From Verrucomicrobiales bacterium (lineage in GTDB: Bacteria > Verrucomicrobiota > Verrucomicrobiia > Verrucomicrobiales > SLCJ01), in assembly GCA_046075565.1 (NCBI GenBank), contig JBJTQJ010000040.1, positions 1 through 64,000 on the forward strand: a DNA stretch of 64,000 bases, written 5' to 3'. Positions 1,920 through 15,946 of this stretch are shown piece after piece. The notes under the pieces were generated by a model. That model was not told the origin of the DNA. It ran no database searches and saw only the letters and a list, made by a program, of their open reading frames with translations. Both the position numbers and the translations under genes were made by a program. How positions within the stretch are numbered: the stretch's first letter is position 1; every line of letters begins with the position of its first letter.

Positions 1920-2756
1920 TCACTTTTTCTCCGCCGCTTCTTTCTCTTTCTTGGCGCGTTTGGCTTCTTCCCGCGCCTTGGCCGCCTCTGCGGCGGCGGC
2001 ACGGAGGGGTTCCCAAGAGGCCTTGGCTTTTTCCATTTCCTCCTTGTTCAATCCAAAGGCCTGAAGCACACCGGTGGCCATGAGCGCATTGCCTTCGGCA
2101 TTCATGTGCACGCCATCGCCGGTTAATACATTCACACCGGGTTTGTTAGCGGCTTTGATCGCCTCATGGAACATCACATTAAGATCGGCGAGGGGAAGGT
2201 TTTTCTCCTTGGCCAACGCGCGCAGGAATTCGTTGTATGGGACGATCTTCTGGTTGAGATTGCCTCCGAGATCTTCCTTGATCACGGTGGCGGTCAGGAT
2301 GACCGGCCGCACCCCGGCGGCGGCGGCCTGATCGACGATAGCAGTGATGTTTTTCTTGTAGGTGCCGCGCGCGGCCACCTTGTCGTCGTATTGGCCATTC
2401 GCGGCCATGGCATCATCGAGCGGCACACCACGCGGCCCGTGCCAGACATCGTTCACTCCGCAGCTCAGGGTCATCCATTGCGGTTTCTTGGAAAGCACGT
2501 CCTTGTCCAGACGGGCGAGCATCTGATCGGATTTGTGGCCGCTGATCCCGGCCGGCACCGCCTCCGCCTCGATGCCGTTCGCTTTCAATCCGGCCATGAC
2601 GAGTTTCACATAGCCATTCGGTTGGCCCCATCCGCCGGCGGTGATGGAATCGCCGAGGAAGGCGATTTTGTCTCCGGATTTGACGAGAATTTCCGCACTA
2701 GCCTGGTGAGGGCTGAAAATGGCGGCAGCGAGAACGAGGGAAGCGATGGTTTTCAT
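1920..2756 (-). CDS. Secreted SGNH/GDSL hydrolase
   Basis: Signal peptide MKTIASLVLAAAIF..; FLGDSIT, GISG, GVND and DGVH catalytic blocks. Start moved to ATG 2756. Confidence 0.9.
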   Translation of the reverse strand: MKTIASLVLAAAIFSPHQASAEILVKSGDKIAFLGDSITAGGWGQPNGYVKLVMAGLKANGIEAEAVPAGISGHKSDQMLARLDKDVLSKKPQWMTLSCGVNDVWHGPRGVPLDDAMAANGQYDDKVAARGTYKKNITAIVDQAAAAGVRPVILTATVIKEDLGGNLNQKIVPYNEFLRALAKEKNLPLADLNVMFHEAIKAANKPGVNVLTGDGVHMNAEGNALMATGVLQAFGLNKEEMEKAKASWEPLRAAAAEAAKAREEAKRAKKEKEAAEKK

Positions 2757-2913
2757 ATGGGTAGGATAGGTGATGGATTTACGCTGGGAAGGCGCGATTG
2801 ATTTCATCCCAAGTGCAGGTATCGCGCACGCGAGCACGAATCTCCACCCCGGCGGAGAGCAGCGATCCCTGGTTTGTCGAGCCTAGCAATCGGACATTCG
2901 CTTCTCCCGCGCC

Positions 2914-4170
2914 TCAGGGAAGCGAAGCCTCCGGAGCCTTCGGATAGGCGACGAGCCAGTTGCCGCAGTGGAATTTGTCGATGGTGATGGCATTGACGCC
3001 ATACACGGTGGAATGTTTCAGCGTCACGACCACGGCTTTCGGGGAGTCTCCCCAATTGACGAGCGGGGCGATATCGACACCGGCTTCCGTGCCGAGATCC
3101 AGAAGGGCCTGGCAAATGACCGGAGTGTAGGGACCAAGGCGCACATTCACGCAGATATGTCCGCAGGGGCTTTCCTGGTTTTCCCCGGAGAAAAAGTGGG
3201 CCCGCTCGATAAAAACGTAGGCACGCAGAGATTGCGACGCGGGGTCGGCGGCGAATTTCGGCAAATCGTTGGCCAATTGGAAACGAAGCGCATCGCCATT
3301 CACGCGGAAGCCTTTGTTCTCGTGGTTGGCCAAATGCAGGAGAATCTCGCGGTCCGGAGCTTCTTCCTGGGCGGCAGTGTTGGTTACGGCGACGTAGTAT
3401 TGGCTGATGCCTTCGCGGGGTCCATCAAACGCAATCACCGCTTTGTATTCGAGTTTGGGCATTCTGGAGAGAGCTCCGGTCTGCACGGCTTCGGCAAGTT
3501 TCGACTGCTCTTCAATTTGGCTGAAGAGCAAGGGCCCGCGATCCTGCGGTGTGGCGGCTTTGAAAAAGGAATCGAGTCGGCTCTGGAATTCACGGACCAT
3601 CGATTCCTGCAATTCGGGAGGTGTGGCGGTCGGGTCGGGCGGAGCGGGCGGCACGACATCCTCAACGGCCATGGCACCAGGCGTGGGAATCGCTGGAACT
3701 TGAGCTGGTGCTGGCTCGGGCGCGGGCGTTGGCGGAGCCTCGGGAGGAGGCGCTTCGATAACCGGAGGTTCAACTTCGGGAGCGGCAACAGGAGCCACGA
3801 CCTGTGGTGGTTTGACCGGTTCGGGTTTGGCCGGTGATGGTTTGACCGGCTCCGGGGCGGGAGGTTTATCGCGTTCGGGTTTGGCGGGTGCCGTCACTTC
3901 GCTTGCCGGCTTTTTCGGCAGCGGGGTCCGGTCGAAGAGAGGGCGAAAAAAATGCCATGCGGCCGCGCCCACGCCTCCGAGGATCAGGATGATAGCGAGG
4001 GCAGAGGCGAGCGGTGAGCCGGAACTGGATCGGGGTGGGTCGTAAAGCGGAACCGGCGCGGTATCAGAAGATGGCTGGCCCCATGGCATGGGTTTCTCCA
4101 CACGAGGCGGCGGCAGGGTGGTTTTCGTGGGCTCGGCCGGGGTGGCTGCTTGGGGCGGCGGGATTTCCAC
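2914..4170 (-). CDS. Pro-rich single-pass membrane protein of unknown function (start uncertain)
   Basis: One TM helix (LAIILILGGVGAAAW), long P/A/E-rich linker, globular C-terminal ~200 aa; follows pilT on the same strand. Confidence 0.75.
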   Translation of the reverse strand: MEIPPPQAATPAEPTKTTLPPPRVEKPMPWGQPSSDTAPVPLYDPPRSSSGSPLASALAIILILGGVGAAAWHFFRPLFDRTPLPKKPASEVTAPAKPERDKPPAPEPVKPSPAKPEPVKPPQVVAPVAAPEVEPPVIEAPPPEAPPTPAPEPAPAQVPAIPTPGAMAVEDVVPPAPPDPTATPPELQESMVREFQSRLDSFFKAATPQDRGPLLFSQIEEQSKLAEAVQTGALSRMPKLEYKAVIAFDGPREGISQYYVAVTNTAAQEEAPDREILLHLANHENKGFRVNGDALRFQLANDLPKFAADPASQSLRAYVFIERAHFFSGENQESPCGHICVNVRLGPYTPVICQALLDLGTEAGVDIAPLVNWGDSPKAVVVTLKHSTVYGVNAITIDKFHCGNWLVAYPKAPEASLP

Positions 4171-12967: not shown

Positions 12968-13381
12968 ATGGCCAGCCGCCGCCGCAAACGCACCGAAGAC
13001 GATGTCGGGTTCCAATTGGCCCCGATGATCGACATGACGTTCCTGCTGCTTATTTTCTTCATGCTCACCTCCACCGTCACGAATCTCAAGGTGCGGCAGG
13101 AAGTGAAGGTGCCCGTGGCCCCCAGCGCGGTCATTCCCAAGGATGCTTCCCATCGTCTGCTCATCAATATCGAGGCCAAGGGCGACCTTTTCCTCGGCGA
13201 CAAGGCCATCGGTGAAAAAGCACTCGCCGAAGAACTCAATCGCCAGTTCCAGAGCAATCCGCCCCTCCAACTCTATATCCGCGCTGACCGCGCCGTCGAG
13301 GCCAAACGCATCAAACAAATCGTCCGCCTCGCCACGGAAGCAGGTGCCGTCAAAGTGATCATCGCCACGACGAAGAAGTGA
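12968..13381 (+). CDS. exbD: ExbD/TolR family protein
   Basis: LAPMIDMTFLLLIFFM TM with the conserved Asp; IRAD motif. Confidence 0.95.
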   Translation: MASRRRKRTEDDVGFQLAPMIDMTFLLLIFFMLTSTVTNLKVRQEVKVPVAPSAVIPKDASHRLLINIEAKGDLFLGDKAIGEKALAEELNRQFQSNPPLQLYIRADRAVEAKRIKQIVRLATEAGAVKVIIATTKK

Positions 13382-13445
13382 AGTAAAGAGCCTGATTGCC
13401 GTCGCCCTGTCCTGGTTGGTTTATCCGGCGTTGGTGGCTTTCGAC

Positions 13446-14163
13446 CGCCCCTTCAGGGCTCGGCAACGTTTCTCTCTTGTGTTCCCGGGGCGTCGCCCCG
13501 GGCTGTCTTGGTTTGCCCCTTCGGGGCGTGGGGAATGAGCGGACAGTCGAACGTATCCCATGCCAAGTTTATTTGCACACGGAGAAAATTGCCGAGCCCT
13601 CACCTCCCAGGGTCAACCGCCCGACCGCACTCGCCTCGCGTGTCGGGAAAGAGCGCATCCTCTTCAAGGAGCCAACGGCCAGCCCACACTCGCACAGCTG
13701 TTCGGGAAGAACGCATCTTCTCCAAAGGGCCAACGGCCCGCGTCAAAGGCACCCCGCGTATCTGGGAAGAGAGCATCCTCTCCAAAGGGCCAACGGCCGG
13801 CCCACACTCGCACGGCTGTTCGGGAAGAACGCATCTTCTCCAAAGGGCCAACGGCCCGCGTCAAAGGCACCCCTCGTATCTGGGAAGTGAGCATCATCTC
13901 CAAAGGGCCAACGGCCAGCCCACACTCGCCTCGCGCGTCGGGAAAGAGCGCATCCTCTTCAAGGAGCCAACGGCCGGCCCACACTCGCACGGCTGTTCGG
14001 GAAGAACGCATCCTCTCCAAAGGGCCAACGGCCTGCGTCAAAGGCACCCCGCGTATCTGGGAAGAGAGCATCCTCTCCAAAGGGCCAACGGCCCGGCCCA
14101 AGGCAGCCCGGGGCACCGCCCCGGGAAGACCCCACGCCCCGACAATCAAGCCCTGAAGGGGCG
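13446..14163. repeat. Left repeat cassette: forward tripartite hairpin unit (13446-13528), 8-unit ~59-nt tandem array (~13610-14093), reverse tripartite unit (14082-14163)
   Basis: Unit = CGCCCCTTCAGGGCT-N~23-CCCGGGGCnnnGCCCCGGG-linker-terminal hairpin. Array core G(G/A)GCCAACGGCC at 13669, 13727, 13787, 13845, 13905, 13964, 14022, 14082. Confidence 0.93.
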
Positions 14164-14192
14164 GCCAAAACACAAGGTCAACCGTTCACACT

Positions 14193-14645
14193 TCAATCCC
14201 AGACGTAGCGCTCATCAAATGCGATCCCGTGCCGTTTCAAAAACCCCCGGTACTCCTCCTGAAAGGTTTTCATCCGATGATGTTCGCGCTGATTGGCAAT
14301 ATATTCGCGGACGACTTCCACATTTGACTCGGAGACGGCAAACGCACCATAACCGGATTGCCATGCGAATGCCGTGAATCCCGGCCCATTCGTCTTGATC
14401 CATTTCGACGAGGATTTTTTCACATCCTCGACGACCTGGCTAAGCGCCACGGTTCGGGAAAGATCGAAGAGAAGATGCGCATGGTCTTCCATGGAATTGA
14501 TCAGCACGGGAACGCAGCCCATGTTCTGCAACACACTTGCCATGTAACCGTGCAGGTGCTCACGAACCCCGTCGGTTATGAATGGCTCCCGATTCTTGGT
14601 GCTGAATACGAGATGGATATGCAGACGTGCGAGGGATTGCGGCAT
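14193..14645 (-). mobile_element. tnpA: IS200/IS605-family HUH (Y1) transposase TnpA, REP-associated type, no tnpB
   Basis: HLVFSTKNR, HUH motif EDHAHLL, K..SS.W, FAWQSGYGAFAVS, catalytic YIANQREHH; 150 aa, intact. Confidence 0.93.
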
Positions 14646-14654
14646 CGGGAGGTT

Positions 14655-15131
14655 CGCCCTTTCAGGGCTCAGCAAGGTTTTGTTTCGTATTCCCGGGGCG
14701 TTGCCCCGGGCCGTCTTGGTTTGCCCTTCGGGGCGAAAGAAGCATCGATGGATGGACCCTATTCCATGCTCCGATGATTTGCATCCCCAGAAAATTGCCA
14801 AGAGCCCACCTCAAAGGCCCAACCGCTTGATCGCACGCGCTTCGCGCGTCGGAAAGAACGCATCTCTCCAAAGGGCCAACGGCCCGACCCACACTCGCCC
14901 GGCTGTTCGGGAAGAACTCATCTTCTCCAAAGGGCCAACGGCCTGCGTCAAAGGCACCCCTCGTATCTGGGAAGTGAGCATCATCTCCAAGGGCCAACGG
15001 CCTGCGTCAAAGGCACCCCTCGTATCTGGGAAGTGAGCATCATCTCCAAGGGCCAACGGCCCGGCCCAAGCCAGCCCGGGGCATCGCCCCGGGACTCTCA
15101 TGCGCCCCACAAACCAAGCCCTGAAAGGGCG
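14655..15131. repeat. Right repeat cassette, a direct homologue of the left: forward unit (14655-14735), 4-unit array, reverse unit (15050-15131)
   Basis: Same hairpin units and homologous linker (ATTTGCA..AGAAAATTGCC..CACCTC); array cores at 14873, 14932, 14991, 15050. Confidence 0.93.
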
Positions 15132-15167
15132 ACCTAAGGCCGCTATCCTCAAGGAACCGCCCACCTC

Positions 15168-15614
15168 CTAATCCCGTTGCCCCGGGATGATCAGGGTCGG
15201 CAACTCGGCGCGTCGAACGATGCCTTGGGCGACCGAACCCATGAGCAACGCGCTGATGACTCCGTGGCCATGAGCCCCCAACACCAGCAGATCCGCTTTT
15301 TTCTCCCGGCAGAAGAAAAGAATTCCCTCCACGGGCGTGGAGAATAGAACGGCGGTTTTTACCGTTCCGATGGGCAAACCAAGCCCAACCGCCAATTCCG
15401 CGATCCGGGATTCCGAAGCCGCCCGCAGGCGTTCATCCGGCGGGACCGCTGGAAACTCGGCCGGCGAAAATCCGTAGAGCCCGTAATCCGGACCCGGCGG
15501 AAGCGCATGCACGAGGTGCAGTTCCGCACCAAACGCGCGGGCCAATGCCGTGGCCTGTTCCAGGACAGGCGCCGTCACATCCGAGAAGTCAACCGCTGCC
15601 ACAATTGTTTGCAT
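15168..15614 (-). CDS. Universal stress protein (Usp family)
   Basis: IVAAVDFS, ADLLVLGAHG, LMGSVAQGIVRRAELPTLIIP. Confidence 0.93.
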   Translation of the reverse strand: MQTIVAAVDFSDVTAPVLEQATALARAFGAELHLVHALPPGPDYGLYGFSPAEFPAVPPDERLRAASESRIAELAVGLGLPIGTVKTAVLFSTPVEGILFFCREKKADLLVLGAHGHGVISALLMGSVAQGIVRRAELPTLIIPGQRD

Positions 15615-15946
15615 AGGAACTCCGGGGCCAACCGACCCCGCCTCCATGCTCATTGGAGCAGAAATTAGGGCCCTCTGTAAAGCAAAATCCTCGGGATCCG
15701 GGGCAAATCAGCCTCCGCCATTGTGGCGTTTTCGGCACGAAGGACGAAACCGTGCATTTTTTCTGTTCCAAGATTGCCACAAACGGACTTCAGGTCATTG
15801 CGCCCCCTCCGCACGGCGACGCCAATTGTGACGAAAATGTAAGATTTGAGGACTTGGCAGGGATGGTCGGGGTGAAGTAATGTTACAGGATCGTTGCACG
15901 GAAGAAACTACCGGAGCGCGACGCCCACCAATCCGCACTCCCATCC

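Follow-up and report, generated by a model that had tools for sequence, protein, structure and literature searches.

Two tandem arrays with a period of about 59 nucleotides (nt) lie on either side of a gene for a Y1 HUH transposase in a Verrucomicrobiales bacterium (NCBI GenBank assembly GCA_046075565.1, contig JBJTQJ010000040.1). The window analysed here is the whole stretch of 64,000 nt from position 1 to 64,000 of the forward strand of that contig. The locus resembles the REPtrons of Pseudomonas, and we consider it probable that the arrays are locally multiplied, decayed copies of the hairpin repeat that flanks the gene, with no function of their own. This reading is carried by the anatomy of the arrays, by the derivation of two of their three segment types from the repeat, by the amplification of the same module with intact hairpins in other phyla, and by the absence of coding, CRISPR (short palindromic repeats, clustered and regularly interspaced) or known-RNA signals. 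Published systems are cited below by PMC number, for the passages concerned.

The original prediction, made from the sequence alone, described two ordered arrays, A-B-C-B-C-A-B-C with eight units and A-B-C-C (A'-B-C-C in the present analysis) with four, at a period of 58-60 nt, and both were confirmed by reading the sequence and by an anchor search. The anchor CCAACGGCC occurs 12 times on the plus strand between 13672 and 15053 and never on the minus strand (region 13000-15700 read), and the Tandem Repeats Finder scores of 546 (period 118), 612 (period 177) and 270 (period 59) are far above chance. Each unit consists of one of three variable segments of 32-34 nt (A, B or C) followed by a constant block of ~26 nt, GCATCnTCTCCAAAGGGCCAACGGCC, which is near-invariant across the 12 units. 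The first unit of each array is preceded by a degenerate copy of hairpin 3 of the flanking repeat.

13610..14093, plus strand: left array, whole; degenerate hairpin 3 (13610-13622), then eight units (13622-14093)
13622-13680, plus strand: left unit A1
13681-13738, plus strand: left unit B2
13739-13798, plus strand: left unit C3
13799-13856, plus strand: left unit B4
13857-13916, plus strand: left unit C5
13917-13975, plus strand: left unit A6
13976-14033, plus strand: left unit B7
14034-14093, plus strand: left unit C8
14813..15061, plus strand: right array, whole; degenerate hairpin 3 (14813-14826), then four units (14827-15061)
14827-14884, plus strand: right unit A9
14885-14943, plus strand: right unit B10
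14944-15002, plus strand: right unit C11
15003-15061, plus strand: right unit C12

Copies of one segment type are 92-100% identical (79.7-93.2% in the case of type A), and the types have their ends in common. The outermost unit had been described as the most degenerate of each array, and this agrees with what was found: A9 is 80-81% identical to A1 and A6 (47-48/59), so that the likeness of the 'A' on the right to the A units of the left array is no more than ~80%, and the differences of A1 fall within its first ~20 nt.

Inverted three-hairpin units stand on both sides of the transposase gene, at 14082-14170 and 14654-14735, and the outer end of each array has one more such unit. Read in the sense of the gene, each side runs through hairpin 1, the array, the degenerate hairpin 3, a spacer and an inverted unit, which places the gene between two direct copies of one composite.

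13436..13535, plus strand: forward three-hairpin unit, left copy; hairpin 1 at ~13446-13460, hairpin 2 at 13484-13502, hairpin 3 at 13515-13527 (DNA fold)
13541..13609, no strand: spacer, left copy; identity with its right counterpart 71% (58/82)
14082..14170, minus strand: reverse three-hairpin unit directly 3' of the transposase gene; hairpin 3 at 14082-14094, hairpin 2 at 14107-14125, hairpin 1 at ~14135-14165 (repeat and inverted-repeat search, DNA fold)
14193..14648, minus strand: Y1 HUH transposase gene, 151 amino acids (aa), with HAH as its HUH motif and YIANQREHH as its Y motif
14654..14735, plus strand: forward three-hairpin unit directly 5' of the transposase gene; hairpin 1 at 14654-14669, hairpin 2 at 14692-14710, hairpin 3 at 14723-14734 (repeat search, DNA fold)
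14741..14812, no strand: spacer, right copy
15050..15140, minus strand: reverse three-hairpin unit, right copy; hairpin 3 at 15050-15062, hairpin 2 at 15075-15093, hairpin 1 at 15117-15132 (repeat search, DNA fold)

When folded as DNA the flanking units form three hairpins (z -1.2 to -3.4), hairpin 2 being the strongest of the repeat. The last constant block of each array is itself hairpin 3 of the adjoining reverse unit, which bears out the proposals that the repeated hairpin is the terminal hairpin of the reverse unit and that the arrays belong to a hairpin-repeat/TnpA system. Segment C had been interpreted as the repeat unit with its central hairpin collapsed, and there is moderate support for this interpretation and likewise for its extension to B. 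In collinear global alignments to the linker and hairpin 2 of the adjoining reverse unit (14094-14130), B and C segments reach z values of 3.2-3.9, and among 5000 shuffles the observed score was reached by 5 for B7, 3 for B10, 4 for C8 and 24 for C5. Global alignments of B and C to the other three flanking units are weak. The alignments show B and C to be probable derivatives of the adjoining repeat, and each array unit combines a worn hairpin 2 with the linker, hairpin 3 and a short tail.

On this basis each side of the locus, in the sense of the gene, reads hairpin 1, a number of modules of the form hairpin 2 - linker - hairpin 3 - ~14-nt tail, spacer and inverted three-hairpin unit, and the arrays are, in the preferred reading, tandem amplifications of that module. 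Hairpin 2 has in this reading decayed into the three variants A, B and C, with hairpin 3 and the tail staying near-constant. The array was probably seeded once, from the repeat end, and the seeding may have been driven by the enzyme. Present change would come mainly from homology-driven unequal exchange, slippage and gene conversion, acting on blocks of one to five units and also between the arrays, and the array as a whole would be a selfish by-product without a function of its own.

The core of the flanking repeat (hairpin 2, linker and hairpin 3) resembles the Rfam family RF01687 (Acido-Lenti-1), which is listed as a probable small RNA (sRNA) in the passage cited from Weinberg 2010 (PMC2864571). 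Matches of 28.4 bits at 13484-13528, 27.4 bits at 15049-15093 (minus strand) and 24.7 bits at 14081-14125 (minus strand) all lie below the gathering score of 37, and the fourth flanking unit and all 12 array units are unlisted at E <= 1. The motif is dispersed in relatives: with 83 candidates scored per genome, 40/61 genomes match at E <= 0.01, and 29 exceed the gathering score; a single genome has as many as 67 matches. Six matches were found in the window's own genome, one of which, on contig C13, reaches 40.3 bits. Of 17 loose matches to hairpin 2 in this genome, four at the locus and two elsewhere (contigs C13 and C85) are clean palindromes, in an assembly of 129 contigs from which some repeat copies may be missing. 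Near homologues of the transposase gene, RF01687 occurs at gathering score within ~250 nt at 15/40 loci, in inverted orientation and at fixed offsets, typically with a minus-strand match ~60-110 nt upstream and a plus-strand match ~40-200 nt downstream. Judged by these positions, the Acido-Lenti-1 'sRNA' motif appears to behave as the partner DNA repeat of the Y1 gene.

The name Acido-Lenti-1 was found in no title or abstract of the papers returned by a literature search on it. Across loci L023-L050, RF01687 typically stands at 2386-2446 (minus strand) and 2992-3148 (plus strand) with the gene at 2501-2950, and the loci that have it come mostly from metagenome-assembled genomes (MAGs) labelled Pyrinomonadaceae and Planctomycetota. 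A different RNA motif, abiF (RF03085; gathering score 37), occurs twice upstream of the gene homologue at L015 (2122-2158, 47.2 bits; 2260-2295, 43.9 bits), and a 33 nt x 6.8 tandem array lies downstream of that homologue (3060-3282).

Tandem arrays are a recurrent feature of the neighbourhood of this gene, lying within 400 nt of it at 17/80 homologous loci; confirmed homologous loci number roughly 116. Their density is 19 in 62 kb near the gene (0.306/kb) versus 6 in 293 kb farther off (0.020/kb), a ~15-fold contrast that is inflated because the far territory is mostly coding. At L070, from a MAG labelled Pyrinomonadaceae, hairpin 1 stands directly after the stop codon and is followed, downstream of the gene, by a 67 nt x 7.7 array whose module is hairpin 2 - linker - hairpin 3 - 22-nt tail with intact hairpins. 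Tandem runs of 74 nt and 69 nt, likewise with intact hairpins, occur at L065 and L058 respectively. Three phyla thus show amplification of one and the same module: Verrucomicrobia (the window), Acidobacteria (L070) and Planctomycetes (L058, L065). A further array with intact hairpins, at L109:2170-2622 (G036:C59), consists of 70 nt x 6.5 direct repeats, six of which match RF01687 above the gathering score. The window arrays have the architecture of L070-type arrays, with hairpin 2 worn down and a period of 59 nt. The L070 array (2624-3139, eight 67-nt modules) also has a higher-order pattern, in which two hairpin-3 variants with paired changes (ACCGC..GCGGT and ATCGC..GCGAT) alternate to give periods of 135 and 202 nt.

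The transposase itself is of IS200 type. The 151-aa protein scores 95.2 bits against Pfam Y1_Tnp (PF01797) and 67.6 bits against the IS200/IS605 transposase model NF033573, above its NCBIfam cut-off of 55, and stays below the cut-off of the REP_Tyr_transpos model NF047646 (24.8 bits versus 80). Homologues align along the full protein (residues 1-151), the nearest solved structures are IS200/IS605 TnpA (2f4f, 2fyx, 2xm3, 2a6m), and no TnpA-REP chain is among the PDB matches at E <= 0.01. The Y motif YIANQREHH fits the Y---Q--HH signature of TnpA-Y1 subclass 1.2, as given in PMC6006769, and not the Y---NP motif of the class 2 RAYTs (REP-associated tyrosine transposases, REP standing for repetitive extragenic palindrome). 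No second copy of the gene's DNA was found in its own genome, only contig C40 being matched, and the other Y1_Tnp loci of this genome, on contigs C112 and C124, differ and have no comparable tandem arrays. The second full-length Y1_Tnp gene (C112:43244-43588, 86.2 bits) has a hairpin-2-like palindrome ~300 nt upstream (G000:C112:42927-42945) at a locus without a tandem array. Gene homologues with 79-82% protein identity occur at L016, L017 and L018, in MAGs labelled Gammaproteobacteria, Gemmataceae and Thiocapsa, and this placement reflects either horizontal transfer or binning errors.

The relationships among the units bear on how the arrays have grown. Within the left array A1B2C3 and A6B7C8 agree at 169/177 positions, C3 and C8 differing at the first base only. 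Between the arrays B4C5 and B10C11 agree at 113/118 (96%), compared with 82/106 for the forward units, 58/82 for the spacers and 72/98 for the reverse units of the two composites (71-77%; Fisher p = 7e-8 against the pooled flanks). This identity of the B-C blocks set against diverged flanks is a clear small case of concerted evolution. C11 and C12 are identical, adjacent and repeat-proximal, and C5 has three diagnostic bases in common with both. The oldest sequence lies at the spacer-side edge of the arrays. Polarised, unit-wise growth, as the original prediction had it, is not what these comparisons indicate: the newest duplications are multi-unit blocks of 177 and 118 nt, the latter cross-array, together with the single C11 = C12 pair, and the unit comparison proposed as a check of polarity found divergence from type to be an edge effect, as is usual in tandem arrays, without a gradient. 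Since the newest duplications are multi-unit and the B-C blocks are alike between arrays, unequal exchange or gene conversion is favoured over strictly polar unit-wise growth. The pattern is a mosaic built of blocks from one to five units long, with probable exchange from one array to the other.

Polar growth driven by the enzyme is a real, if lesser, possibility. The Y1 protein would nick single-stranded DNA beside hairpins and, through strand transfer or rolling replication, extend the array by single modules at its repeat-proximal end, which is the amplification model published for bacterial interspersed mosaic elements (BIMEs; PMC3333891). The position of arrays beside gene homologues at 17 of the 80 loci, the amplification of one module in Verrucomicrobia, Acidobacteria and Planctomycetes, and the repeat-proximal position of the identical pair C11 = C12 all agree with such a process, and tandem BIME products have been made in vitro by Escherichia coli TnpA-REP (PMC3333891). 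However, the L109 array has no Y1 gene homologue within 2.5 kb, the youngest relations of the left array are the 177-nt and 118-nt blocks and not single terminal units, hairpin 2 is lost in every array unit, and the enzyme belongs to a subclass without known activity. A related idea, somewhat more doubtful, is that the arrays are natural products of the subclass 1.2 enzyme, which is not known to have a DNA substrate, as the independent amplification of the module in three phyla, preferentially beside the gene, may suggest; in that case the array ends would mark where the enzyme cleaves and transfers strands. If this is true, hairpin 3 and the constant tail would be the minimal site that the enzyme needs, because units that lack hairpin 2 are still exchanging.

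Several points weigh against our preferred reading of decayed repeat copies reshaped by homology-driven exchange. Segments A6 and A9 show no excess over shuffles when aligned to the linker and hairpin 2, leaving homology of segment A to the repeat unsupported, and local alignments to the repeat and spacer, made with all three segments and with the tail, are mostly at shuffle level. The repeat family has ~6 copies in its own genome, so the term 'REP-like' does not apply to it as a name for a dispersed, high-copy repeat. Constraint on the units could explain the B-C identity in place of exchange, because identity is likewise ~94% among the hairpin 2-hairpin 3 cores of the four flanking units. 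The amplification of the same module in independent lineages and the ~15-fold enrichment near the gene fit an enzyme-directed process at least as well as host recombination. Finally, the order and number of the units come from a short-read metagenome assembly.

The last of these points raises the possibility, which we rate as unlikely, that the repeats are real and the number and order of units in part artefacts of assembly. Independent read data came from Logan contigs of four DNA runs (X1-X4) of one freshwater study, and in all four the contigs are interrupted within the arrays. In X1, depth is 45.6 and 59.8 for two pieces present once in the assembly (13897-13966 and 13937-13995 respectively), versus 19-27 in the flanks; with ~2x flank depth on these pieces the unit count may be a lower bound, Logan depth and contig gaps being unfit for copy number. 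The count of identical right-hand C units (C11 = C12) is likewise unfixable with contig pieces of ~151 nt. Against an artefact, zero-mismatch pieces from X4 (13789-13944, B4-C5-A6) and X3 (13887-14043, C5-A6-B7-C8) bridge B4-C5-A6-B7-C8, the only part of the left array that they corroborate; pieces from X1 (14064-14948) and X2 (14862-15012) bridge C8 and the gene side through A9-B10-C11; and the units differ at enough sites to place a 150-nt read.

An X2 contig covering 13866-14057 (depth 3.8) differs from the window at 13896, 13976, 13991 and 14013, all four of them subtype-diagnostic, and the differences give C(3/8-type)-A-B(2-type), an order of neighbours that the window does not have. This one low-depth contig is a hint of array polymorphism or copy-number variability. 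At window position 13914, in the constant block of C5, all covering X1 contigs read A and not G (depth 73 of 73), and X1, the best-holding run, thus differs from the window inside that block.

A BLAST search of the units in their own genome, a check proposed with the original prediction, gave matches at the locus only. Among 60 relatives no match extends more than ~22 nt into either array, and in 400 genomes of the order only pieces of 20-40 nt were matched, at E >= 2e-4. A metagenome scan with the exact 20-nt constant block gave 0 matches; from a scan for two anchors 47-53 nt apart, 80 of 121 stretches were compared and none was related to the window (blastn) or to the gene (tblastn), the stretches with periods near 57-60 nt being unrelated repeats. 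An empty-site comparison with three genomes of the same family was rejected. Their exbB-exbD genes are <=72% identical and usp lies elsewhere, so they offer no orthologous intergenic site.

The arrays had been likened to CRISPR, and the likeness holds in their dimensions, with a 26-nt block, inside the 23-55 nt of CRISPR repeats, present 12 times at 58-60-nt spacing; it ends at the 'spacers', which are of three recurring and mutually related types, and at Cas1, which is missing from the genome. Searched with PF01867, the own genome (rated 100% complete) gave 0 matches, the control being positive in 7/14 genomes. It is accordingly highly improbable that the locus is a CRISPR-like or small-RNA array whose transcript is processed to ~59-nt RNAs, each with a variable part next to a constant handle. 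The lengths of the 26-nt repeat and 32-34-nt 'spacers' would suit such an array, as would the filing of the parent motif by Rfam as an sRNA, but the 'spacers' share their ends and probably derive from the repeat, and no Rfam family is found at E <= 1 inside the arrays. A coding reading was rejected as well: the period of 59 nt is not a multiple of 3, and the five open reading frames over the arrays have no Pfam match (best E = 0.052, below cut-off).

The genes outside the locus are relevant to a possible role in cis.

12968-13381, plus strand: exbD, outer neighbour on the left
15168-15653, minus strand: usp, outer neighbour on the right

The arrays occupy the 3' regions of exbD and the transposase gene, as well as the interval that separates usp from the transposase gene, where they might act as a 3'-end stabiliser or terminator for the exbD, usp or transposase mRNA, or as decoy sites titrating the enzyme. 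Such roles are described for REP arrays in E. coli (PMC3333891, PMC6006769), and the near-invariance of the constant block over 12 units could be taken as a sign of function. We nevertheless regard a functional cis-element as quite unlikely. In folding, the array units have no advantage over shuffles (z -0.6 to +0.5), the invariance of the block is explained by recent duplication, and the arrays are absent from all relatives searched, so that no conserved role is visible. A terminator reading was rejected, with 3 sites versus 2.3 +/- 1.5 in shuffles and none inside the arrays; the only terminator-like match of the locus falls on hairpin 1 of its right reverse unit (15130..15118). A sigma-70-like site in the right spacer (14801..14774, minus strand) faces the transposase gene and is the sole site in 13300-15300, a weak result (1 vs 0.4 +/- 0.8 in shuffles), and the left spacer has a similar stretch facing the 3' end of exbD.

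Much of this has precedents in print, including REP/REPIN clusters beside RAYT genes, direct REP arrays, variable BIME-2 and the nicking and rolling models (PMC3116915, PMC3333891). The passages cited for Pseudomonas fluorescens SBW25 describe ordered tandem REP/REPIN clusters beside the RAYT, and also tandem REP arrays in direct orientation with as many as 12 units (PMC3116915). Like the REPtron of SBW25, the present locus has a single Y1 gene within inverted palindromic repeats, adjoining ordered tandem clusters (PMC3116915). However, the enzyme here is of class 1 (IS200-like, Y---Q--HH), below the NCBIfam REP_Tyr cut-off, whereas a RAYT is of class 2 (Y---NP), and the repeat here has three hairpins, is only partly amplified, has lost its main hairpin to decay and belongs to a family of low copy number in the genome. 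With a class 1 enzyme and a low-copy repeat the locus falls outside the RAYT systems, although it is REPtron-like.

In E. coli, BIME-2 is described as a tandem mosaic of REP and linker, with copies well conserved within a locus and a copy number that varies between strains (PMC3333891). The window arrays are likewise a tandem mosaic with well-conserved copies, and the nick, strand-transfer and rolling-replication models given for BIME-2 (PMC3333891) are the mechanism first proposed for them. BIME-2 alternates REP with inverted REP, whereas all 12 anchors here are on the plus strand, with one small hairpin per unit. With RF01687 the flanking cores have the two-hairpin architecture in common, and copies in relatives score above the gathering threshold, some in tandem arrays of 67-74 nt; the window copies differ in scoring 24.7-28.4 bits (<37), and the motif's entry is that of an sRNA without assigned function and not of a transposase-associated DNA repeat.

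TnpA-Y1 subclass 1.2 is characterised in the passages cited from Quentin et al. (2018; PMC6006769) as close to IS200 transposases, with non-IS behaviour and low copy number. The enzyme described here matches it in the Y---Q--HH signature, in its proximity to IS200, in showing no IS behaviour and in low copy number, and it differs from the subclass as described in those passages in that its gene has clear inverted hairpin flanks. With IS200/IS605 elements the locus has a TnpA of IS200 type in common, but its flanks are inverted copies of one repeat instead of distinct left and right hairpins, and several near-identical copies of an element are absent. Likeness to CRISPR is confined to the lengths of repeat and 'spacer' and to the small hairpin in the repeat.

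The arrays are best regarded as an ordinary pile-up of a selfish repeat, and to annotate them as CRISPR array, sRNA cluster or repeat protein would be unwarranted. The value of the locus lies in its being a well-resolved case that ties Acido-Lenti-1, an orphan 'sRNA' motif of Rfam, to an IS200-like Y1 subclass, one that the cited passages describe without partner repeats (PMC6006769). Together, the intact arrays of relatives and the decayed three-variant array of the window form a series for the study of hairpin recognition and array growth.

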